DNA of 41,683 nucleotides from Candidatus Bilamarchaeaceae archaeon (lineage in GTDB: Archaea; Micrarchaeota; Micrarchaeia; Anstonellales; Bilamarchaeaceae): contig DATDTS010000068.1 of the NCBI GenBank assembly GCA_035290745.1, positions 1 to 41,683 of the forward strand, written 5' to 3'. The notes beneath the pieces were generated by a model that searched no databases, was not told the DNA's origin, and saw only the letters and a list, made by a program, of their open reading frames with translations. Each line of letters opens with the position of its first letter. Position 1 is the stretch's first letter. This document shows, piece by piece, positions 2,032 through 18,303 of the stretch. A program made the translations under genes and the position numbers.

Positions 2032-3036
2032 CTAATCTTTAATATCTTTTGAATATTTTTCTGACTCAACATAAACTATCTTGCTTCCACCGTTTGAGAA
2101 GTTAAACCCGATCTCTTTAAGAGGTCTAAGCGCAGATTTCACAGCTGCCTGTTTTTCTTCTTCACAATAAAACATCAAGAAGCCTCCGCCACCTGCACCA
2201 AGAACCTTACCGCCTTTTGCACCAGCACCTAAAGCCAAAGAATAATAATTGTCAATCAAATCATTAGAGATCCCTTGTGCAAGAGATTTTTTTGCAAGCC
2301 ATGATTCATGAAGAAGATCGCCGAATGATTCAAATCTATTATGCAACAACTCTGAATAAGCTTTTTCTGCTATTGACTTCATTTTGTGCAATGTATCAAT
2401 CTTTTTCTCAGTATCTCTTTTCTGATGCTTCAATATTTGACTTGCTTTTCGATTTAGGCCAGTATAAAAGAAAAGTAACTTTTTATTAAGAGATTCAAGA
2501 GTATTTGGAGAAGTTTTTAGTGGATTAATCTCTACTTTTCCTCCTTTATAAAATTTTATTAAATTAAAACCACCATAGGCAGCACAATATTGATCCTGCT
2601 TTCCTATCGGCTCTTTTAATGTATCTATCTCTATTTTACAGGAATTTTCAGCAAGAATTTTTGCAGAAGCATCAGTTCCGATATATTTGTACAATGCATT
2701 CAAAACCCCAACCAAAAAACTACTGGAAGACCCTAATCCAGTACCATAAGCAGGAATATCGGCCAATGAACCGATTTCTACTCCACCTTTTATATTCAAA
2801 AATTTAAGAGATTCTCTTATGGTTGGGTGAAGGATTTGATCAACCGAATCAACAATTTCACTTAATCTATATTTTAAAAAAATTTTATTATCAAAGCTTC
2901 TCTTGTTCAAAACAACATAGACATACTGATCAATTGAAGTACTAAGTACACACCCATAATCATATTCATAATAAGCCGCAAGATCTGTACCGCCACCAAA
3001 AAAAGAAACACGCAAAGGAGTTCTTGATAGAATCAT
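2032..3036 (-). CDS. hddA: GHMP-family sugar kinase, probable D-glycero-alpha-D-manno-heptose 7-phosphate kinase
   Basis: The N-terminus SRTPLRVSFFGGGTDL and the GHMP ATP motif PAYGTGLGSSSSF are present, plus the C-terminal GAGGGGF. It is adjacent to gmhA, hddC and gmhB. Confidence 0.75.
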   Translation of the reverse strand: MILSRTPLRVSFFGGGTDLAAYYEYDYGCVLSTSIDQYVYVVLNKRSFDNKIFLKYRLSEIVDSVDQILHPTIRESLKFLNIKGGVEIGSLADIPAYGTGLGSSSSFLVGVLNALYKYIGTDASAKILAENSCKIEIDTLKEPIGKQDQYCAAYGGFNLIKFYKGGKVEINPLKTSPNTLESLNKKLLFFYTGLNRKASQILKHQKRDTEKKIDTLHKMKSIAEKAYSELLHNRFESFGDLLHESWLAKKSLAQGISNDLIDNYYSLALGAGAKGGKVLGAGGGGFLMFYCEEEKQAAVKSALRPLKEIGFNFSNGGSKIVYVESEKYSKDIKD

Positions 3037-3049
3037 AACACCACAATAC

Positions 3050-3628
3050 TTACTTTGATCCTTGTTTTCTGATTAACTCAATTAGATAAACTTTTAGCAA
3101 ATGACCTATTACCCAATGTAAATCTTCTGCAATTTCCATTGAATTTGTTTTACCTACTATAACATAATTTGCAAGATCCTTTAATTTACCACCGTTAAAA
3201 GCAGTTAACCCAACTGTAATTGCATGTTTAGAATTCGCGTATTTGATAGCTTCCAAAACATTTTTTGAGTTTCCACTTCCACTAAACCCTATGACAACAT
3301 CGCCTTCTTCTAAAAAGTTCTTTAATTGCTCAACAAATATTGACTCATAAGAAGAATCATTAGCCCAAGCGGTAATGAGTGGAACATTATTTACTAATGA
3401 ATAGATTTTGAGAGAAAGCCCTTCTAAAGAACTAGTTTTTGAAAGATCTGCTGCAAGGTGCAAAGAGTTTGTTGCACTATCGCCATTTCCAAAGACATAA
3501 ACCCTTTTACCAGATTTCGCAGCAGTAAAAAGAATTTCTGCGATTTTAACTACTTGATTTAAGTCCAATGATTCGAGAACTTCGTGCAAATCAAGAAGAT
3601 AATCTTTCAAACAGTTTTTTGATAACAT
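3050..3628 (-). CDS. gmhA: SIS-domain phosphoheptose isomerase (sedoheptulose-7-P isomerase)
   Basis: 192 aa with the SIS pattern GKRVYVFGNGDSA...GFSGSGNSKNV. The size and neighbours fit GmhA. Confidence 0.8.
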   Translation of the reverse strand: MLSKNCLKDYLLDLHEVLESLDLNQVVKIAEILFTAAKSGKRVYVFGNGDSATNSLHLAADLSKTSSLEGLSLKIYSLVNNVPLITAWANDSSYESIFVEQLKNFLEEGDVVIGFSGSGNSKNVLEAIKYANSKHAITVGLTAFNGGKLKDLANYVIVGKTNSMEIAEDLHWVIGHLLKVYLIELIRKQGSK

Positions 3629-4327
3629 TTATTCACCATTAGATTTAGCCGACTGGTACCTATCACGAGTACCAAGATCCATAACTTTTTCATCTGTCAA
3701 ATACGCATAGAGCGATTCGCCAGACGATATAATTTTTGGGATTATTTCTTTATCTAACATAGACTTTCCTTGAGGTAAATATTTAAAGATAGTTGGTTTG
3801 AAGCAATAAACACCTGCATTAGCCAAATTCGTGAATTTCTGACCTTTTTTTGGTTTTCCGAGAAATTTTACAATTTTTTGGCTTTTATCAACTTCTAGAA
3901 TATCAGAATCATATGGATGAGAACTCTGGTGTAAAACAAGCGTACCGATGCCATTTTTCTCAATATGAAAACCAATAAATTTTGAAAAGTCAATTTCAAT
4001 AAGCAGATCACCATAAAGTAATATAAAAGAATTGCTTCCTATCACATCTTTTGCGTTTAAAAGAGCCCCACTAGTACCCAAAGGAAATTCTTCCCTAGAG
4101 TAGGTTATACTGACTCCAAACGCTCTTCCGTTTTTAAAATAATCTTCAATAATTTTAGATAAATGGTATGTGCAAATGATAATATTAGTAATCCCATAGG
4201 CCCTAAGCCTTTCTATCTGATGTTGAAGTATTGGTTTCCCATTAAAATAAAGCATAGGTTTTGGAACTGACTCTGTAAGTGGAAGAAGCCTTGTTCCAAG
4301 ACCCCCGACCAGGATAACTGCTTTCAT
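3629..4327 (-). CDS. hddC: sugar-1-phosphate nucleotidyltransferase, probable D-glycero-alpha-D-manno-heptose 1-phosphate guanylyltransferase
   Basis: MKAVILVGGLGTRLLPLTESVPKPML is the nucleotidyltransferase signature. The gene is 232 aa and abuts gmhA (stop/start adjacent) and gmhB (4-nt overlap). Confidence 0.7.
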   Translation of the reverse strand: MKAVILVGGLGTRLLPLTESVPKPMLYFNGKPILQHQIERLRAYGITNIIICTYHLSKIIEDYFKNGRAFGVSITYSREEFPLGTSGALLNAKDVIGSNSFILLYGDLLIEIDFSKFIGFHIEKNGIGTLVLHQSSHPYDSDILEVDKSQKIVKFLGKPKKGQKFTNLANAGVYCFKPTIFKYLPQGKSMLDKEIIPKIISSGESLYAYLTDEKVMDLGTRDRYQSAKSNGE

Positions 4328-4899
4328 AGTTCTACCTCAGATATTATCTTTGCTGCATCTAATAAATCATTACAAACATAATCTGGTTTCACTTTATATT
4401 TTTTGTCTCTTCCAGCATAGCCAGTTTTCACAAGAATGCTGCTGATCTTGGCGTTTTTAGCAGTCTGAATGTCAACAGTAGTATCTCCAATCAAAAAAGA
4501 ACCTAAGAGAGATAAATTAAGGTCTTTTGATGCAGAAACAAGCATACCTATTTCAGGTTTCCTACAATGGCATTTTCTCCTGTATACGGGATTGTTTGCT
4601 TCTGGATGGCCCTGTTCTTGGTGATGGGGGCAATAATAGACTGCGTCAATTCTAGCGCCTTTCTTCTTTAGCAGGTCAACCAGGTATTGATTAAGTTTAA
4701 CCACAGTTTCCTCATTACAAAGATTTCTGGCAACGACAGGTTGGTTTGTAACGATAACTACAGCAAAATTGTGTTTATTTAGTAATTTTATCGCTTCTAC
4801 ACTGTTTTGCAGGAGTTTAATATCTTCTCTTTTATGAAGAAGATCAACTCCGTTAATGATGGTCCCATCACGATCTAGAAAAACAAGTGCTTTAAACAT
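4324..4899 (-). CDS. gmhB: HAD-family D,D-heptose 1,7-bisphosphate phosphatase
   Basis: HAD motif I FLDRDGTI is present, followed by VTNQ. The Cys/His Zn-loop pattern typical of GmhB is seen as YYCPHH...CHCRKP, and GD..VD lies near the C-terminus. Confidence 0.85.
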   Translation of the reverse strand: MFKALVFLDRDGTIINGVDLLHKREDIKLLQNSVEAIKLLNKHNFAVVIVTNQPVVARNLCNEETVVKLNQYLVDLLKKKGARIDAVYYCPHHQEQGHPEANNPVYRRKCHCRKPEIGMLVSASKDLNLSLLGSFLIGDTTVDIQTAKNAKISSILVKTGYAGRDKKYKVKPDYVCNDLLDAAKIISEVEL

Positions 4900-7906: not shown

Positions 7907-9079
7907 ATGAATAAAAAAATCCTTATTGTTAGTGAATATTACCATCCTTTCATAAAAGGAGGGGCCGAAACAACAATAAAAGCATACGCAGAAAAACTTG
8001 TTAAAGATGGAAATGAAGTAACAATATTAACACCAAATTATGAAACTAACGATGAAATAAGAGAAAAAATAGGTGGTGTGAAGGTTATAAGATTCAAATC
8101 ACTGAGAAGATTATTGTACAAAAGTAAAAAAAGAAAAGACATAACAAAAGAAGCATATGCAAATAAAAAAAGGCTTTTCTACCTTTTTCTTTCATTTTAT
8201 ACTGTTTTTTCAGCATGTGATATGCGAAATGCGACCAAAAGGCTTATGAAAAAAAAGCACTTTGATGAGATAGGAGGTAATAACCTAGAGTCAGTTTTGG
8301 CAGTAGCTGGGATAAAAACAAAATCAAGAAAGGTTGTTTATCTAAGAGATTTTGGATTATTCTGCCATAATAGGGGTTTATATCAATGCGACTGGTTTTG
8401 TGAATTGTGCGGACTTAGAAATTTCTTAAGTGCTGGTGATTTGAAAGGAATTGTTAAATGGATGTTTGGATTAACAAAAAAACTTGAAAACAGTCAGCTA
8501 AACAAATTTAATCATATTGTAGCTGCAAGTGAATTCATAAGGAATAGAACCAGTGATATTACAAAGGTAAAAAAAGAGGATATAGAAATTATTTATGACA
8601 TAATTTCTCCAGAATATATTGCTGAAGTATCAAAGGAAGAAGCGCGAGAAAAGCTAAAACTCCCACTTAACAAGAAAATCTTTTTATATTTAGGCACACT
8701 TAGCCCTCTAAAAGGTGCACAATTCATTGTCCCATTATCAAAAAGGTTTGAGGAAATATATTTTGTTGTTGTAGGGGGAGGGCCGTTAAAAGATGAGATA
8801 TCAAAAAATCAAGGTCAAAATTTGAGATATGATGGATTTGTTGAAACTACAGAAATAAAATATTATTATAAATCAGCTGATGTCTTACTTGTACCATCAG
8901 TATGGTATGAGCCTTTTGGAAGGGTTGTAGCAGAAGGATTTGCCAATGGTTGTTTTGTGATAGGCAGTAATTATGGTGGGATAGGAGAACAGATAAAAAA
9001 ATCTAAAAAAGGCATTGCAACTACTCCAACACTAGAAGGATTAGAGAACTCAATAGAAAACTACCTCAAAAAAAGTTAG
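7907..9079 (+). CDS. glycosyltransferase, GT4/GT-B fold
   Basis: The N-terminus ILIVSEYYHPFIKGGAE and the C-terminal VPSVWYEPFGRVVAEGFANGCFVIG (E-x7-E) are present. There is a Cys/His-rich insert: FCHNRGLYQCDWFCELCG. Confidence 0.85.
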   Translation: MNKKILIVSEYYHPFIKGGAETTIKAYAEKLVKDGNEVTILTPNYETNDEIREKIGGVKVIRFKSLRRLLYKSKKRKDITKEAYANKKRLFYLFLSFYTVFSACDMRNATKRLMKKKHFDEIGGNNLESVLAVAGIKTKSRKVVYLRDFGLFCHNRGLYQCDWFCELCGLRNFLSAGDLKGIVKWMFGLTKKLENSQLNKFNHIVAASEFIRNRTSDITKVKKEDIEIIYDIISPEYIAEVSKEEAREKLKLPLNKKIFLYLGTLSPLKGAQFIVPLSKRFEEIYFVVVGGGPLKDEISKNQGQNLRYDGFVETTEIKYYYKSADVLLVPSVWYEPFGRVVAEGFANGCFVIGSNYGGIGEQIKKSKKGIATTPTLEGLENSIENYLKKS

Positions 9080-10095
9080 TGATGTCTTCTCATAATGAAG
9101 CTGTTTCTTAACTTAATTAGGGGTTTATATAAATTCGTATAAGAAGCAAAGAAGAAAACAATAGTCGTTAATAGGTACTTGCACAAACGAAAATCAATAA
9201 AAGAAAGTAAAAACCAATCTAAAAAAAGAGCATTCCTCAATAGTCTTTTTGCTTCTATATCGTTACCAGCACTTAAAAAATTCAAAGCAGGAGTTACAAG
9301 ATTCCCGTAAACCTTGTAACACCTATATTTCTTCAAGGTTAAACTATTGAAAATATGAATCTTTGACTCAAGGTATTTATCAAGTACTAAATAGAATTCA
9401 TCAGCACAAGTTCTACTAGTTTCGATTCTAATCGAAGCTTGAATTGGGCTTAAACGATAATTAATTAGTTTTTCATCAAGAATTGCTATATTCATATGTT
9501 CAAGAAAACGAAAATACATATCAAAATCAAATGCCCATTTGAAATCTTTTAAATTGTATTGACCAACTTTTTTATATAACTGAGTCCTGGCAATACAACT
9601 AGAACATACAAAAGGGTCATTAACTCTGGACACACAATATTTCAGAATATCATCAAGATCAAGAGATAGGTTCTTTTTCTCAAACCATTTTGACAACGGT
9701 TTTTCACCAATTTTTTCATCTTTGGTATTGATCAAATTAGCGCTTGCAAAAACAGCACCAACTTCAGGTTTTTTGTCTAAGATAGAAACTTGCTTTTCTA
9801 TAATGGTAGGCTCATAGATATCATCTGCATGAAATAATGCAATATATTCCCCATTCGCTTTGGAGATGCATTTATTCCAGTTCTCACTTAGTATGTTTTT
9901 AGAATTTCGAAAAAGAGTTATGCGTTTGTCAGTATATTTCTTTAAAATTTCAAAAGTATTATCCGTAGACGCGTTATCAATTATAATCAATTCAAAATCA
10001 GAATAAGTTTGGGCAAGAATAGAATCTATTGTCTTTTTTATGAATTCAGCTGCATTGTATGCAGGAACACACACTGATAGTTTTGGTTTTTCCAT
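9076..10095 (-). CDS. glycosyltransferase family 2 with hydrophobic C-terminal tail
   Basis: LSVCVPAYNAAEFIKKTIDSILAQTY.DFELIIIDNASTDNT is the GT2 signature, and a DD motif occurs in FHADDIY. The start is trimmed to ATG at 10095 (MEKPKLS). Confidence 0.85.
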   Translation of the reverse strand: MEKPKLSVCVPAYNAAEFIKKTIDSILAQTYSDFELIIIDNASTDNTFEILKKYTDKRITLFRNSKNILSENWNKCISKANGEYIALFHADDIYEPTIIEKQVSILDKKPEVGAVFASANLINTKDEKIGEKPLSKWFEKKNLSLDLDDILKYCVSRVNDPFVCSSCIARTQLYKKVGQYNLKDFKWAFDFDMYFRFLEHMNIAILDEKLINYRLSPIQASIRIETSRTCADEFYLVLDKYLESKIHIFNSLTLKKYRCYKVYGNLVTPALNFLSAGNDIEAKRLLRNALFLDWFLLSFIDFRLCKYLLTTIVFFFASYTNLYKPLIKLRNSFIMRRHH

Positions 10096-10156
10096 AGCAG
10101 GATTTAAAAAAAGACAAGTATAAAAACACTTTGGTATTGGGACATTATAGAATAAT

Positions 10157-11200
10157 ATGAAAAAAGCGTTAATCACAGGTATTACTGGGCAGGATGGATC
10201 TTACCTTGCAGAGCTTTTATTAAACAAAGGGTACGAGGTACATGGAATAATCCGAAGGGCAAGTACCTTTAATACGGTCAGGATAAACCATATCTTCCAA
10301 GACCCGCACATACAAAATGCTAAATTGTTCTTGCATTATGGAGATTTGTCTGATTCTGAACAAGTAAGCAATATAATTCATAAAATAGAACCAGATGAAG
10401 TTTACCATTTAGGTGCACAGAGCCACGTTAGGGTAAGCTTTGACATGCCAGAATACACTTCAAATGTAACTGGAGTAGGAACAACGCGAATCCTAGAGGC
10501 CATAAGGAGAAGCAAAAAAGTGATAAGATACTACCAAGCATCAAGCAGTGAGATGTTTGGATCGGCAAACCCGCCTCAAAATGAAGACAGTCCATTTAAA
10601 CCGCGCAGCCCATATGCTTGTGCAAAGGTTTATGCATACTGGATGGCAAAAAATTACAGGGACGGATATGGGATTTACGCTTCAAATGGGATATTGTTCA
10701 ATCATGAATCCCCAAGAAGAGGAGAAACATTTGTAACAAGAAAGATAACCCGGGCAGTATCAGCAATACTGGCAAAAAAACAGAGATTTTTGTATTTAGG
10801 GAATCTAGAGGCAAAGAGAGATTGGGGATATGCTCCGGAATATGTCGAAGCAATGTGGAAGATTATGCAGCAAGAAAAATCAGATGATTTTGTAATTGGA
10901 ACTGGGAAGACTCATTCTGTAAAACAATTTGTAGATGAAGCTTTTACGTATGTTGGTCTTGACCCACAAGAACATATCAAGATAGATAGGGAATATTTTA
11001 GGCCAACCGAAGTGGAAGTATTAATTGCAGATAACAAAAAAGCAAGGGAAAAAATTAAATTTGAACCAAAAATAGAATTTGAGGAGCTTGCAAAAATAAT
11101 GATGGATGCAGATATGAGAACGTTTGGTTTAGAACCAATTGGAAAAGGAGACAAAATAATCAAAAATAAGTTTAAAGACAAGTGGTGGAAAGGAGATTAG
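10157..11200 (+). CDS. gmd: GDP-mannose 4,6-dehydratase
   Basis: [45 protein letters not shown] is the hallmark Gmd N-terminus. [17 protein letters not shown] is also present. 347 aa. Confidence 0.95.
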
Positions 11201-12133
11201 ATGGATTTAAATGAAAAGAGGGTGCTTGTTACTGGGGGCAATGGATTCTTGGGTAATTTTGTAGTAGATGAATTAAAAAAAAAGAAAGTTGAATGTATTT
11301 CAACACCAACAAAAGGAGAGTATGACTTACTAGAAAGAAATGATGTTTATAAAATGTTGAAACAAGAATCACCAGAGGTTATAATTCACCTTGCAGCCAA
11401 AGTTGGGGGAATAGAAGCCTGCAAAAAGTACCCTGCATCTTTTTTTTATGAGAACATGGCTATGGGGTTGAACCTTTTTGAAGCTGCAAAAGACCATAAA
11501 ATAGAAAAATTTGTAGCGATAGGCTCAGTATGTGCATATCCAAAATTTGCACCAATTCCTTTCAAAGAGCAAGATTTATGGTCTGGATACCCTGAAGAAA
11601 CCAACGCACCATATGGCCTTGCGAAAAAGATGTTACTAGTAGAGGCACAGTCTTATAGAGAACAATACGGATTAAATGCGATATATTTGCTTCCAGTAAA
11701 TTTATATGGACCAGGAGATAATTTTAATCCGGAATCATCACATGTTATCCCAGCACTTATAAAAAAATTCATAGATGCAAAAGAACAAAATAAGAAAGAA
11801 GTGGTTATTTGGGGGAATGGAAGCCCGACTAGGGAATTTTTATATGTTGAAGACTGCGCCAGGGGGATTGTACTGGCAACTGAAAAATATGATAAATCAG
11901 AACCCGTAAACTTAGGTTCTGGAATGGAAATTAGCATTAATAACCTAGCAGAGTTGATAAAAAAGCTAACTGACTTTGAAGGAAAGTTAGTTTGGGACAC
12001 AACAAAACCAAATGGCCAGCCAAGGAGATTGTTTGACAACTCAAAGGCAAAAAAAGAGTTTGGTTTTATTGCAAGAATCGGATTTGAGAAAGGATTGAAA
12101 AAAACAATTGATTGGTATCTGAAAAACAGGTGA
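11201..12133 (+). CDS. fcl: GDP-4-keto-6-deoxy-D-mannose 3,5-epimerase/4-reductase family (GDP-L-fucose synthase, or the homologous GDP-L-colitose synthase ColC)
   Basis: VLVTGGNGFLG, SVCAYPK and NLYGPGDNFNPESSHVIPALIKKF are typical of Fcl/WcaG. It starts directly after the gmd stop. Confidence 0.85.
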   Translation: MDLNEKRVLVTGGNGFLGNFVVDELKKKKVECISTPTKGEYDLLERNDVYKMLKQESPEVIIHLAAKVGGIEACKKYPASFFYENMAMGLNLFEAAKDHKIEKFVAIGSVCAYPKFAPIPFKEQDLWSGYPEETNAPYGLAKKMLLVEAQSYREQYGLNAIYLLPVNLYGPGDNFNPESSHVIPALIKKFIDAKEQNKKEVVIWGNGSPTREFLYVEDCARGIVLATEKYDKSEPVNLGSGMEISINNLAELIKKLTDFEGKLVWDTTKPNGQPRRLFDNSKAKKEFGFIARIGFEKGLKKTIDWYLKNR

Positions 12134-12140
12134 AAATAAT

Positions 12141-13334
12141 ATGGATAACCTAAGACAAATTGGTGTTGGTTGTGCAGATATATCGGATAAAGAAAAAGAA
12201 TACGTGAATATTGCGTTAAATAACAACAGACTTTCTTATGGAGAATTTACCCACAAGTTTGAAAAAAGATTTGCAAAGTTGCATGATTGTAAATATGCAA
12301 TGATGTGCAATAGCGGTACAAGTGCCCTTAGAGTTGCGATTGCAGCTCTTAAAGAAACCGATGAATGGAAAGAAGATGATGAGGTTCTTGTTCCCTCTAT
12401 AACTTTTATATCAACTTCAAATGTTCTAATACAGCAAAACCTCAAACCTGTTTTTGTTGATGTAGATCCCAGGTATTACAACATAGATCCAACCAAAATT
12501 GAGGAGAAAATAACAGAGAAGACTAAGGCAATTATGCCAGTTCATTTGTTTGGTATGCCATGTGATATGGAACCAATAATGAAAATTGCAAAAAAACACC
12601 AATTACGAGTTGTTGAAGATTCTTGTGAGACTATGCTTGCAAAGTACAAAGGAAAAAGCGTTGGCTCGTTTGGAGATATTGGATGTTTCTCAACATATGT
12701 TGCACACTTGGTAGTAACCGGTGTTGGAGGTATTTCAACAACAAATGATAATGATTTGGCAATTAAAATGAAAAGTCTGATGAATCATGGCAGGGATTCT
12801 ATATATCTGCATATTGATGATGATAAAACAAATGATGAAGAGAAACTTTCGATGATAATGGAGAGAAGATTCAGTTTCGTAAGATTAGGTTATAGCTTCA
12901 GAGCAACGGAACTTGAAGGCGCACTTGGGTTAGGGCAATTAGAAATTGTAGATAAAATAGTACAAAAAAGAAGAGAAAACGCCGCATATCTTACTGAAAA
13001 ACTAGCTCATCTCGATGAACATTTACAGCTTCCAAAAATAGCCCCAGATAGGGATCACTCATTTATGATGTATCCAATAGTTGTAAAAGATCCAAAAATT
13101 AAAAGAGATGAATTGACGTTATATCTTGAAAAGAACGGAGTTGAAACCAGGTATATGCTGCCACTTTTAAACCAACCAATTTATATCAAACTTTTTGGAA
13201 ATCTTGAGGGTCAGTATCCAATTGCAAAGAATATAAACAAGAATGGATTTTATATCGGATGCCATCAAAAACTAGATAAAGAAGATTTAGATTATGTTAT
13301 ACAAACATTTAAAGAGTTCTTCTCCAAGCAATAA
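12141..13334 (+). CDS. DegT/DnrJ/EryC1/StrS-family PLP/PMP enzyme lacking the canonical Schiff-base lysine; candidate ColD-like GDP-4-keto-6-deoxy-D-mannose 3-dehydratase
   Basis: The family pattern runs from NSGTSAL to GDIGCFSTYVAHLVVTGVGGISTTND. At the position 7 residues before the GG, where aminotransferases of this family carry Lys, this protein has His, and no Lys occurs in the segment. It lies immediately downstream of gmd-fcl. Confidence 0.6.
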   Translation: MDNLRQIGVGCADISDKEKEYVNIALNNNRLSYGEFTHKFEKRFAKLHDCKYAMMCNSGTSALRVAIAALKETDEWKEDDEVLVPSITFISTSNVLIQQNLKPVFVDVDPRYYNIDPTKIEEKITEKTKAIMPVHLFGMPCDMEPIMKIAKKHQLRVVEDSCETMLAKYKGKSVGSFGDIGCFSTYVAHLVVTGVGGISTTNDNDLAIKMKSLMNHGRDSIYLHIDDDKTNDEEKLSMIMERRFSFVRLGYSFRATELEGALGLGQLEIVDKIVQKRRENAAYLTEKLAHLDEHLQLPKIAPDRDHSFMMYPIVVKDPKIKRDELTLYLEKNGVETRYMLPLLNQPIYIKLFGNLEGQYPIAKNINKNGFYIGCHQKLDKEDLDYVIQTFKEFFSKQ

Positions 13335-13362: not shown

Positions 13363-14376
13363 ATGGACAGACCTAGGATTTTATGGCAATGCCCTCGTTT
13401 TAATCCATACTTTGCAGATTATTACATAAATATGAATTACAAAGATGCTTTTGTTGATTTAGGTTACACATTTGATTTTCTTACAGGTGAAGATGATTTA
13501 ATAGAAAAAGTAAATAGATTCAAACCAGATATTTTAGTAACTGCAACACAAAATGAATATTTCGAGAAATTAGACATAGAATGGTTGAATAAAAAAAGAA
13601 AAGAGGGATTGTTTGTTATTGTTGCTGTTGAAGCACTTGAGCATTATGATCCGCTTTATAGATTAGAGAATAAACCAGAGAGAATTAGATTAATACAAGA
13701 AGGAAAACTGGGAGACATGTTTTTTGGGAACAATGAGTTAGAAAGAATGAAAGGTTTTAAAGAAAAAACAGGTTACAAATATCATTTTCTGCCTCTGGCC
13801 GCAAATCATAAGGTCCAGTTTGGTTCTACACATTTTGTAGAAAAAAAATATGAATGCGCATATGTTGGCAACTATATGTTGAGTAAAAAAGAAAAATTCG
13901 CGGGATATATTGACCCACTAAAAAATAAACATAACCTAAAACTAATTGGAAATAATTGGACATTAACTGATAGAGCTATTGCAAAGATACATAGAATGTT
14001 AAAAATAAAACAAAAACCAAAGATAACTTTAGATCAAGAAAGAGAGTTATACTGGAAAACAAAGATCGGATTAAATCTTCATGAAAAAAAACAAGCTATT
14101 GAAGGATTAGACGTTAATGAAAGAACATTTAAGGTTCCCGCATGTGGATGTTTTGAATTGTGTGATGCAAATAAAAGCGTATACAAATATTTTGCAAAAG
14201 ATGAAGTAATCCTTGCAGAGGATGAAAAAGACTGGTATGAAAAGATAGAATATTATCTCGAAAATGACGAAGAAAGAGAAAAAATAGCAGAAAAAGGATA
14301 TCAAAGAGTGCAAAAAGAACATCTTTATACACACAGAGTCAAAAAGATGATAGAGATATATAAATCGTATTTATAG
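13363..14376 (+). CDS. CgeB-like glycosyltransferase family protein (Glyco_trans_1_2-type C-terminus)
   Basis: The C-terminal NERTFKVPACGCFELCD...YFAKDEVIL....DW.EKIEYYL.NDEEREKIAEKGYQRV matches the CgeB/DUF3880-type pattern. Confidence 0.6.
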   Translation: MDRPRILWQCPRFNPYFADYYINMNYKDAFVDLGYTFDFLTGEDDLIEKVNRFKPDILVTATQNEYFEKLDIEWLNKKRKEGLFVIVAVEALEHYDPLYRLENKPERIRLIQEGKLGDMFFGNNELERMKGFKEKTGYKYHFLPLAANHKVQFGSTHFVEKKYECAYVGNYMLSKKEKFAGYIDPLKNKHNLKLIGNNWTLTDRAIAKIHRMLKIKQKPKITLDQERELYWKTKIGLNLHEKKQAIEGLDVNERTFKVPACGCFELCDANKSVYKYFAKDEVILAEDEKDWYEKIEYYLENDEEREKIAEKGYQRVQKEHLYTHRVKKMIEIYKSYL

Positions 14377-14389
14377 TTTCGGTGAGTAA

Positions 14390-15544
14390 ATGAATCAGGT
14401 ACTTGTCAGTTCTGGAGTTATTTTTGGAGTTCACGGACTTGGAAATTTGTCTTACCATATTGCTAAAGGATTATATGAGCATAATATGTTAGAAAAAGTA
14501 TTTGCTTGGGATTACAAAAAAACAGACTTGCCTGACAATAAAATAAAAAGGATAGTTCCCATGGGATATTACCTAGAAAAGGTATTGGGCGGATTTAGAA
14601 ATAGAATATACAAAGACTTCCCGCAATATCTTTTACAATGCGAATTTTTTGATATAATGTGCTCTTATTATACAAATTCAACAAAAGCTAATATCGTATA
14701 TGGTGGTGGAGGCACGACCTTAAGAACTATGAAAAGGCTTAAGAAAAAAGGAATTAAATTTGTTTTTCCTGGATTTTCAACACACCCAAATGATCATTTT
14801 AGATTACAGATTGAAGAAGCAAAAAGATGGAATGTTAAATTATCTCTAAATTTAAGATCTGATTTTTTAATTAAAAAAATTAAAGAAGAGATAAAAAATT
14901 CAGATTATATAATTGCAGCATCAGAACTTGTAAAAGATAGTATGGTCCATAATGGGGTACCAAAACAGAATATATCCGTGATACCATTTGGAGTAGATAC
15001 TAAAAAGTTCAACCCTGGTAATAAAAAAGGGGGAAAATTTAGGGTTCTTTTTGCCGGTTCAATATGTTTAAGGAAAGGAGTTCCTTATTTATTAGAAGCA
15101 TGGGATTCACTGAACTTAAAAAATGCAGAATTGATTCTATCTGGAGGTATTCATTCTGAGATGAGGGAGATATTAAAAAAATATAAAAATAACAATACAA
15201 TACAAATAATAGAAAAAACAAATATAGAAAGGTTATATAAAACTGCAGATATCTTTGTTTTCCCAAGTATAGAAGAAGGATCGGCACTTGTAACCTACGA
15301 ATCGATGGCCAGCGGCCTCCCGATCGTCACAACTATGAACAGTGGTTCGGTAGCTAAAGACAAAAAAGACGGATTTATAATTCCAGCAAGAAATATAGAA
15401 AAAATAAAAGAAAAAATACTGTATTTCTATGATAATCCTAAGATGGTAAAAAAAATGGGCAAAAATGCAAGAAACCATATGGTAAAGGAATATACATGGG
15501 ATCATTTTGAAGAAAGAACAGCTGAATTTTTTTCAAGAATTTGA
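14390..15544 (+). CDS. glycosyltransferase, GT4/GT-B fold
   Basis: FRVLFAGSICLRKGVPYLLEAW and FVFPSIEEGSALVTYESMASGLPIVTT (E-x7-E) are present. Confidence 0.85.
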   Translation: MNQVLVSSGVIFGVHGLGNLSYHIAKGLYEHNMLEKVFAWDYKKTDLPDNKIKRIVPMGYYLEKVLGGFRNRIYKDFPQYLLQCEFFDIMCSYYTNSTKANIVYGGGGTTLRTMKRLKKKGIKFVFPGFSTHPNDHFRLQIEEAKRWNVKLSLNLRSDFLIKKIKEEIKNSDYIIAASELVKDSMVHNGVPKQNISVIPFGVDTKKFNPGNKKGGKFRVLFAGSICLRKGVPYLLEAWDSLNLKNAELILSGGIHSEMREILKKYKNNNTIQIIEKTNIERLYKTADIFVFPSIEEGSALVTYESMASGLPIVTTMNSGSVAKDKKDGFIIPARNIEKIKEKILYFYDNPKMVKKMGKNARNHMVKEYTWDHFEERTAEFFSRI

Positions 15545-16992: not shown

Positions 16993-18303
16993 TTATAATC
17001 TTAAGAATTTTTCGAATTGATCAACAACATACATCCTCATTTCATTTGTTAAACCAGGATATACCCCAATCCAAAATGTATTGTTCATTATATAGTCAGA
17101 ATTCTTAAGATCCCCTATAATTTCATACTTTTCATCCAAATAAGCTGGTTGACGGATTAGATTGCCTCCAAAAAGCATTCTTGTTGTAATCTTTTTTGAT
17201 TCGAGAAAAGCTACAATCTGATTTTTAGTAAACTGAACTCCTTCTCGTATAGTAAGAGGAAACCCAAAAGGACTTGGGTCTGCCTTAGGGTGTTTTTTAG
17301 GAAGAACAAAATACTCTTCATAATCTTTTAGGTTTTGATAATAATAATTAAAATTTTCTTTCCTTTTCTTGATAAATTCTGGCAGTTTCTTGAGCTGCGC
17401 AAGACCAACTGCGGCTTGCATATCAGTGACTTTAAGATTGTAACCGATATTCGAATAAATGTACTTGTGATCGTACCCTTCTGGTAATTGTCCAAGTTTC
17501 CAGCCAAACCTTTTTCCACAGGTATTTGATTCACCTGGTTGGCACCAACAGTCTCTTCCCCAGTCCCTAAAAGATTCAATTGATTTCTTCAGAATCGGCT
17601 TGGAGGTTAAAACTGCGCCGCCTTCACCCATTGTCATATGGTGCGCCGGATAAAAACTTACAGTAGCAATATCTCCAAAAGTACCAACTGGCTTTCCATC
17701 AAAGGTAGCACCAACTGCGTCACAACAATCTTCTATTAAGTACAAACCATGTTTTTTTGCAATGCTTGTGATTTTATCTAGATCAAAAGGATTGCCGAGT
17801 GTATGAGCTAATACTATTCCGCGGGTTTTTTCATCTATTGCTTCCTCAAGCAAAGTGGTATCAATATTGTAAGTACCAAGTTCAACATCCAAAAAAACTG
17901 GGACTAAACCGTTCTGAAAAATTGGATTTACCGTTGTTGGAAATCCAGCCGTGACAGTTATGATCTTTTCTCCTTTTTTGAGCCTTTTTTCCCCAAGAGA
18001 TTTTGATGTTAATGCTGATAATGCTAAAAGGTTTGCAGATGAACCTGAATTGGCAAGAAGGCAATATTTTGAACCAAAAAATGTAGCAAATTCTTTTTCA
18101 AACTCTTGTGCATATTTTCCTGCTGTAAGCCAAAAATCAAGTGAACTGTCTACTAAATTAATAATTTCTTGTTCATCATAGACCCTTCCTGCGTATGGGA
18201 TTGCTGTTTCTCCTGGTTCAAACTTTGATTTGTTGGATTTTGACAGGTAAAACTGTTTAACAAGATTAAAGATAGCCCTCTTAATATCCGTATCTTCTTT
18301 CAT
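16993..18303 (-). CDS. rfbH: CDP-4-keto-6-deoxy-D-glucose 3-dehydratase (E1; RfbH/DdhC-type PMP enzyme)
   Basis: 436 aa, which is the RfbH size. The hallmark SFYPAHHMTMGEGGAV has His in place of the aminotransferase Lys. LANSGSSANLLA and WIGVYPGLT are also present. Confidence 0.85.
   Translation of the reverse strand: MKEDTDIKRAIFNLVKQFYLSKSNKSKFEPGETAIPYAGRVYDEQEIINLVDSSLDFWLTAGKYAQEFEKEFATFFGSKYCLLANSGSSANLLALSALTSKSLGEKRLKKGEKIITVTAGFPTTVNPIFQNGLVPVFLDVELGTYNIDTTLLEEAIDEKTRGIVLAHTLGNPFDLDKITSIAKKHGLYLIEDCCDAVGATFDGKPVGTFGDIATVSFYPAHHMTMGEGGAVLTSKPILKKSIESFRDWGRDCWCQPGESNTCGKRFGWKLGQLPEGYDHKYIYSNIGYNLKVTDMQAAVGLAQLKKLPEFIKKRKENFNYYYQNLKDYEEYFVLPKKHPKADPSPFGFPLTIREGVQFTKNQIVAFLESKKITTRMLFGGNLIRQPAYLDEKYEIIGDLKNSDYIMNNTFWIGVYPGLTNEMRMYVVDQFEKFLRL

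Follow-up and report, generated by a model that had tools for sequence, protein, structure and literature searches.

The forward strand of contig DATDTS010000068.1 from a Candidatus Bilamarchaeaceae archaeon, analyzed here as a whole 41,683-nt stretch (hereafter the window), carries an operon in which the genes of a GDP-mannose 4,6-dehydratase (Gmd) and of a short-chain dehydrogenase/reductase (SDR) resembling Fcl and ColC are followed by an open reading frame (ORF 12141–13334) for a DegT-family protein with histidine in place of the lysine that binds pyridoxal 5′-phosphate (PLP). We consider this protein to be, with a probability of roughly 0.6, an iron-sulfur-free 3-dehydratase that depends on pyridoxamine 5′-phosphate (PMP) and acts on the Gmd product GDP-4-keto-6-deoxy-D-mannose. 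Sequence features, phylogeny and gene context were observed directly, and from them we infer the cofactor, the substrate, the chemistry and the product. The nearest known systems include ColD (WbdK) of Escherichia coli O55/O111 and Yersinia pseudotuberculosis (PDB 2gms, 3b8x) and the C3-dehydratases of Campylobacter jejuni HS:5/HS:11. An earlier note on this DNA had read the histidine from the sequence and proposed a GDP-L-colitose pathway composed of gmd, an fcl-like gene and a colD-like gene; the observation was confirmed, while the interpretation is partly supported.

The histidine signature and its place in the DegT family

ORF 12141–13334 belongs to the DegT/DnrJ/EryC1/StrS family, with a full-length match to PF01041 (profile positions 3–359 of 360; 332 bits against a gathering cutoff of 19.8), and its best NCBIfam model was that of RfbH/E1 (271 bits, below the cutoff). 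The segment FSTYVAHLVVTGVGG covers residues 183–197 and places His189 seven residues ahead of the GG, the nearest lysines being K172 and K209. In HMMER alignments His189 fell on the Schiff-base lysine of the Caulobacter perosamine synthase (Per), for which the K186A entry 3dr4 has alanine, and in MAFFT alignments on the lysine of E. coli O157 RfbE and the histidine of E. coli O111 ColD, both references being taken from annotated O-antigen clusters. The position of the histidine, its distance from the GG and the segment free of lysine were thus as the earlier note had described them, and the two motifs it had quoted for comparison were also right: E. coli K-12 ArnB carries SFHAIKNITCAEGG, with K188 as the lysine, and the E1 copy encoded in the same window carries FYPAHHMTMGEGG at the equivalent segment. 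Histidine was present in 120 of the 120 closest homologs (58–100% identity) and was 97% conserved in the wider clade; the exchange of lysine for histidine is a trait of the family and not a chance substitution. None of the lysines in 23 aligned family members was invariant, so no shifted lysine can stand in for the lost one, and no indel was found that would bring a lysine into place, an outcome that the earlier note had named as speaking against its reading. Histidine at the PLP-lysine position is the hallmark of His-type sugar 3-dehydratases, and the only characterized 3-dehydratases in a review of nucleotide-sugar dehydratases are E1, ColD and SpnQ (PMC8987622).

The GVGG found where related enzymes have GEGG, which had been called atypical, marks the whole clade: 117 of the 120 closest homologs carry it, two have GIGG and one has GTGG. 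A residue other than glutamate at position 195 goes with the histidine throughout, whereas ColD/E1-type and Lys-type proteins have glutamate. Two proteins within this His/non-Glu clade, P0144 and P0154, have cysteine and glutamine, respectively, at the histidine position and may be inactive or of different chemistry. A further member, P0141 (682 aa), is seemingly split by an intein, with Intein_splicing and PT-HINT matches lying between two DegT stretches from about residue 150.

When representatives clustered at 50% identity were searched exhaustively, three groups emerged: a large group with histidine and G[V/I/M/A]GG that extends down to about 38% identity, a group with histidine and GEGG that includes the O111 ColD reference and several members of about E1 length, and a group with lysine and GEGG, the aminotransferases. 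In the maximum-likelihood tree ORF 12141–13334 was placed in the His/non-Glu group (signature in 76 of 78 rows), from which ColD, the E1-like proteins and the aminotransferases including Per were split off by a branch with 99% support in the Shimodaira–Hasegawa-like approximate likelihood ratio test (SH-aLRT). Clustering with perosamine synthases, the other outcome that the earlier note had held against itself, was not observed, Per being located within the Lys/GEGG clade (support 97). Once the tree was rooted with E. coli ArnB and WecE, every Lys-type row lay to the same side of one branch (support 91), and a single K/H change was enough to explain the topology. On these alignments, the best reading is that the His/GVGG clade and ColD/E1 both go back to one Lys-to-His event, and the clade appears as sister to the group of ColD/E1 and aminotransferases within the sampled family. 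A strict ColD ortholog is ruled out by the separate deep clade and by an identity of 31% to O111 ColD, when the C3-dehydratases for GDP-sugars that have been characterized from E. coli, Yersinia and C. jejuni share 62–67% identity with one another (PMC10440746). A perosamine synthase is ruled out despite the best pairwise scores, as the lysine is missing and the K/H branch separates the protein from Per, and an E1-type iron-sulfur enzyme is ruled out by a loop without cysteine.

Positions conserved in at least 85% of the His/GVGG clade were compared with both neighboring groups: 19 were common only to the clade and the ColD/E1 group (among them C162, E163, H189, H216, R218, F244, F246, E257, E335, R337 and H375), against nine common only to the clade and the aminotransferases. 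The putative cofactor-binding positions G59, T60, D160, E163 and S184, whose roles as ligands we assume from the ColD structure, were each at least 92% conserved. An insertion of 17–20 residues after the HG is common to the clade and ColD/E1, the CE[ST]M and G.HQ motifs are common to the clade and ColD, and Per has none of these. The insertion opens with the loop motif NHGRD.IY..IDDD, in which N215, H216, G217, R218, D219, Y222, D227 and D228 were invariant among the 23 aligned members. No cysteine occurs in this loop of ORF 12141–13334 where the window E1 has a Cys-rich segment, which we take to be its [2Fe-2S] ligand site; this suggests that the enzyme resembles ColD in being free of an iron-sulfur cluster.

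With ColD the protein thus has in common the DegT fold, the histidine, the lack of an iron-sulfur motif, the insertion and its motifs as well as the Gmd context, and it differs from ColD by GVGG instead of MEGG (Val195 for the glutamate of the.EGG turn), by Ser252 (GYS) instead of the asparagine of GYN.R, by Ala188 instead of serine before the histidine, and by the acidic loop. The serine, the glutamate and the asparagine are neighbors of the active site in ColD. A test of co-variation between Glu195 and Asn252 was without power, only two independent pairs being available. Likeness to E1 (PDB 3bcx) extends to the histidine, the alanine that precedes it, a loop starting with GRD and the best NCBIfam model, but the loop has no cysteine, the genomic linkage is to Gmd and GDP-sugars rather than to CDP-glucose genes, and identity to the window E1 is 32%. 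Per/RfbE (Caulobacter, PDB 3bn1/3dr4; O157) has the top pairwise similarity, with template modeling (TM) scores of 0.85/0.92, an identity of 37% to O157 RfbE and probably the same substrate; unlike the clade, it has Asn-Lys, GEGG and no insertion. H48, W76, V195, S252, M309 and C374 are conserved in the clade and found in neither ColD/E1 nor the aminotransferases. The claim that the enzyme is ColD-like therefore holds for the histidine, for the Gmd link across genomes and for the balance of conserved positions, and fails where orthology is meant.

Gene neighborhoods and the SDR partners

At least 405 species genomes encode a member of the His/GVGG family. The best 80 of them are all uncultivated and comprise Micrarchaeota, Nanoarchaeota, Woesearchaeota, Aenigmatarchaeota and many groups of the candidate phyla radiation (CPR), together with Gammaproteobacteria, Acidobacteria, Armatimonadota, Nitrospirales, Chloroflexi and others. 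Identity across archaea and many bacterial phyla was 56–67%, and the cofactor ligands were invariant. Neighbors were counted in the 79 loci in which the gene was called, the counts being lower bounds as many contigs are short. Gmd was encoded within 4 kb in 43 of the 79 loci (directly adjacent in 30), any non-Gmd SDR in 54 (41), an Fcl-type SDR in 30 (24), a small soluble family 2 glycosyltransferase (GT2) in 29 (3), with four more fused, and a second DegT paralog in 13 (4). The layout of the window, in which Gmd, the Fcl-like SDR and the His enzyme occur together, was found in 17 loci, so that linkage to Gmd, as in ColD-type systems, is seen both in the operon itself and in related loci. As this context is common to ColD, the same substrate and overall reaction are probable.

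In another recurring layout, Gmd and the His enzyme were followed by an SDR of about 300 aa and then by the small GT2, whose closest solved relative was the dolichol-phosphate mannose synthase of Pyrococcus, followed by ArnC and GtrB; this relationship suggests that the finished GDP-sugar may be handed to polyprenyl phosphate. Several His/GVGG members carry a C-terminal GT2 fusion of about 230 aa (L024:7013–8908, L063:4912–6834, L071:6998–8854 and L074:784–2676, as well as P0122, P0127 and P0133). In a third layout, a Lys-type DegT gene immediately precedes that of the His enzyme, and Gmd is in most cases close by. Such paralogs, 33–37% identical to the His enzyme, were present at L030:2882–4015, L047:5757–6869, L056:5857–6957 and L076:5785–6873, in loci of the Nanoarchaeota or Woesearchaeota type, two of which (L047, L056) have Gmd nearby. 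An analogous pair of a His and a Lys enzyme is SpnQ/SpnR. The paired genes would be consistent with a 3-dehydratase whose product passes to a 4-aminotransferase, yielding a 4-amino-3,4,6-trideoxy sugar. Overall, the downstream partners were varied, with SDRs of three or more kinds, Lys-type DegT paralogs and the DPM1-like GT2 among them, and no acyl- or formyltransferase was found among the ten largest annotated neighbor clusters.

In one operon (L073:2169–8985), Gmd, the His enzyme and an Fcl-like SDR are accompanied by a glucose-1-phosphate cytidylyltransferase (355 bits, above the cutoff), an SDR resembling CDP-glucose 4,6-dehydratase and a thiamine diphosphate (ThDP) enzyme of the acetolactate synthase type, an interleaving of GDP- and CDP-sugar genes with a possible C-branching enzyme. 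Similar superclusters occur in the window, in L029 and in L022. The ThDP enzyme was considered as a marker of a 3,6-dideoxy-4-keto product and set aside as ambiguous, since it follows the CDP-glucose pair (RfbF, RfbG) in L073 and stands beside E1 in the window. A B12-binding radical S-adenosylmethionine protein, which could be a sugar C-methyltransferase, is encoded near the His enzyme in four loci (e.g., L005:1422–2834).

Four representatives of the clade (P0132, P0135, P0137 and P0139; 688–721 aa) are fusions with an N-terminal SDR, a distant one of the Fcl/ColC type, that matched best the Fcl-like protein and ColC. Among the proteins analyzed, none joined Gmd to the His enzyme. None of the four SDR parts had a hit to Gmd or to any 4,6-dehydratase NCBIfam model, and in three of them the sole matching NCBIfam model was GDP-fucose synthase, weakly, at 35–58 bits. 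An epimerase/reductase of the Fcl/ColC type requires a 4-keto substrate, and the fusion therefore indicates that the product of the His enzyme keeps its 4-ketone, as expected for a dehydratase and not for an aminotransferase.

The SDR of the window itself (ORF 11201–12133) is probably a GDP-4-keto-sugar epimerase/4-reductase, judged by its relatives. It reached 324 bits against NF047922, compared with 311 for O111 ColC and 539 for the true Fcl of O157, and stayed below the equivalog cutoff of 500; its identity is 38% with ColC and 39% with Fcl, and its best solved relatives were GDP-fucose synthases (232 bits). One cysteine column and one histidine column are invariant in the three proteins and presumably correspond to the epimerization pair of Fcl. 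A reverse metagenome search from the Fcl-like gene returned 80 closest relatives (54–64% identity), 40 of them in loci with at least 1.3 kb on both sides; Gmd adjoins 25 and the His enzyme none of the 80. This SDR type is thus for the most part an ordinary partner of Gmd and probably a diverged GDP-fucose synthase. In the SDR tree, 13 His-associated copies formed a clade of their own (99% support), and a separate group of 37 rows had no His enzyme nearby in 36. Joining the window SDR to the His-associated clade was not rejected by the approximately unbiased (AU) test (p = 0.96), and an alternative placement had 65% support. For a dedicated ColC analogue, the 0/80 loci speak against, and the tree, in which the window copy stands between two groups, speaks neither way. 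Of the colitose pathway that had been read from the gene order, the operon and the linkage to Gmd stand, and the Fcl-like protein is no more than a candidate for the ColC step. By analogy with the E. coli O157 cluster, which holds gmd, fcl and per together, the gene cluster could make GDP-fucose plus a second sugar.

Proposed reaction and competing explanations

By analogy with ColD, PMP would form a ketimine with the C4 ketone of the Gmd product and His189 would abstract the C4′ proton, upon which the 3-hydroxyl would be expelled and hydrolysis would free GDP-4-keto-3,6-dideoxy-D-mannose and ammonia. PMP would be regenerated from PLP with an amino acid, for instance glutamate, as donor. Epimerization at C5 and reduction at C4 by the neighboring SDR of the Fcl/ColC family would then lead to a GDP-3,6-dideoxyhexose, and the two glycosyltransferases encoded downstream would build the sugar into a surface glycan. 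This SDR may in addition turn the Gmd product directly into GDP-L-fucose. GDP-L-colitose would be the simplest end product. Colitose-type 3,6-dideoxyhexoses are known mainly from the O-antigens of a few Gram-negative pathogens. If the proposed function is true, they would be widespread on the surfaces of archaea of the DPANN superphylum, of CPR bacteria and of numerous further lineages without cultivated members, and in these host-dependent organisms with small genomes surface glycans likely matter for attachment to the host.

Several observations weigh against a 3-dehydratase. The closest enzymes by score are the perosamine synthase (226 bits), then E1 (197) and ColD (172), and the first eight Foldseek ranks obtained with an AlphaFold2 (AF2) model as query were all Per. 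The model had a predicted local distance difference test (pLDDT) value of 85.9 overall, with low confidence in loop residues 218–226, and it is unreliable at the His loop (pLDDT < 50). Both the GEGG glutamate and the GYN asparagine, present in ColD, are substituted, and the loop has an acidic IDDD motif of its own. In nine loci Gmd and the His enzyme occur with no reductase or paralog within 4 kb, and none of the 80 loci centered on Fcl-like relatives holds the His enzyme. The source of GDP-mannose was not firmly identified, the 1.1-Mb genome in 99 contigs showing GlmM-type mutases, ambiguous nucleotidyltransferases and no clear ManC. No characterized member of the His/GVGG clade was found and a literature search returned no paper on it; among ten sampled clusters none had a named or cultured member, all ten being metagenomic, and they bear automatic names such as “perosamine synthetase”.

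The protein could instead be a His-based aminotransferase that converts the Gmd product to a perosamine-like GDP-4-amino-4,6-dideoxyhexose, while Gmd and the Fcl-like SDR make GDP-fucose separately. The similarity to perosamine synthase in sequence and fold, the loci with Gmd and no reductase, the general association of the closest Fcl-like relatives with Gmd, and the O157 cluster, which unites gmd, fcl and a DegT enzyme without a colitose pathway, all agree with this, and the His-type SpnQ is reported to transaminate in the absence of a reductase (PMC8987622). We nevertheless regard it as quite unlikely, as the conserved signature positions favor dehydratases by 19 to 9, all Lys-type enzymes lie across one branch, the fusions to Fcl/ColC-type SDRs would be pointless were the ketone consumed, Lys-type DegT paralogs adjoin the His enzyme in some loci, and the ten largest annotated neighbor clusters include no N-acyltransferase. 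A route to a GDP-3,6-dideoxy-heptose, as in C. jejuni HS:5, was also considered, given that a GHMP kinase, an SIS isomerase, a nucleotidyltransferase and a phosphatase of the haloacid dehalogenase (HAD) superfamily are encoded at 2032–4899 on the reverse strand, about 5 kb upstream of gmd, and that C. jejuni uses a Gmd-family 4,6-dehydratase together with a ColD-type, PLP-dependent C3-dehydratase on GDP-heptose (PMC10440746). This appears distinctly improbable for the family as a whole, though conceivable for the window itself: all four heptose models scored below their cutoffs, HddA, GmhA and GmhB were encountered 0, 1 and 2 times in 80 related loci (a count limited by the 7-kb flanks), the window Gmd scored above the equivalog cutoff for GDP-mannose, and the C. 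jejuni route employs a separate epimerase and reductase and no Fcl-type enzyme (PMC10440746).

Because the acidic loop sits at the site of the Cys-rich segment of E1 and both the GEGG glutamate and the GYN asparagine are lost, the His/GVGG clade might form a mechanistic class of its own, the third among DegT enzymes without the lysine, with another reaction (e.g., a transamination driven by histidine or a new rearrangement in which the ketone is kept) that yields an undescribed sugar for surface or lipid-linked glycans of DPANN and CPR organisms, a reading that we hold to be unlikely. A narrower version, in which the enzyme carries out a different keto-retaining reaction on the Gmd product (another cofactor regeneration, an isomerization or an epimerization) that GVGG, GYS and IDDD would reflect, would fit the clade-specific residues and acidic loop, which are absent from ColD/E1 and the aminotransferases, the deep and separate branching of the clade and the diversity of its downstream partners. 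It also seems rather improbable, because nothing points to such a reaction specifically, the catalytic histidine and the cofactor ligands are as in 3-dehydratases, and diverse partners are likewise expected of a 3-dehydratase that feeds several pathways, like E1. Finally, the loss of the canonical lysine and of the GEGG glutamate could indicate a pseudoenzyme without activity or a partner with a structural role only, which is very improbable for a protein that retains 56–67% identity and invariant cofactor ligands over such taxonomic distances and occurs in operons with Gmd.

For proteins without the lysine, the automatic annotations “perosamine synthetase” and “aminotransferase” cannot be right, and a single biochemical characterization would correct the annotation of widely mislabeled genes. 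It would also bear on whether the GEGG glutamate and the GYN asparagine are dispensable for C3 deoxygenation and on the role of the acidic loop.

The operon and its surroundings in the window

According to the ORF list, five closely packed genes on the forward strand encode Gmd, the Fcl-like SDR, the DegT-family protein and two glycosyltransferases (Table 1). The first three abut or nearly abut, with exactly the boundaries that the earlier note had given: the gmd stop adjoins the start of the Fcl-like gene, and the later gaps measure 7, 28 and 13 nt. The window Gmd is 53% identical to that of E. coli O157 and probably furnishes the 4-keto-6-deoxy substrate.

Table 1 Coordinates of the operon genes and of related features in the window
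Feature	Coordinates	Strand	Evidence
Gmd, GDP-mannose 4,6-dehydratase, 347 aa	10157..11200	+	TIGR01472, 499 bits (cutoff 415); PF16363, 454 bits
Extended SDR of the Fcl/ColC family, 310 aa	11201..12133	+	NF047922, 324 bits (cutoff 500)
Lysine-less DegT-family enzyme, 397 aa, His/GVGG clade	12141..13334	+	PF01041, 332 bits
Codon CAC of His189, position of the PLP Schiff-base lysine	12705..12707	+	Alignments; His in 120/120 close homologs
Codon of Val195 (GVGG for GEGG), clade signature	12723..12725	+	Homolog alignments
Clade-specific loop motif NHGRD.IY..IDDD, residues 215–228	12783..12824	+	Alignment of 23 members
Glycosyltransferase-like protein, 337 aa, operon gene 4	13363..14376	+	PF13524, 107 bits; 28-nt gap after the His enzyme
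GT4 glycosyltransferase, 384 aa, operon gene 5	14390..15544	+	PF00534, 103 bits; 13-nt gap
E1 copy (RfbH/DdhC/AscC)	16993–18303		His in place of the lysine; Cys-rich segment in the loop

Within the gene set at 2032–4899, the best model of the nucleotidyltransferase was that of mannose-1-phosphate guanylyltransferase. A GT2 is encoded on the reverse strand at 9076–10176, divergent from gmd, and with a GTG start it would share about 20 nt with the beginning of gmd; it resembles GT2 proteins of the EpsE/TuaG type and not the small DPM1-like GT2 that is linked to the His enzyme elsewhere.

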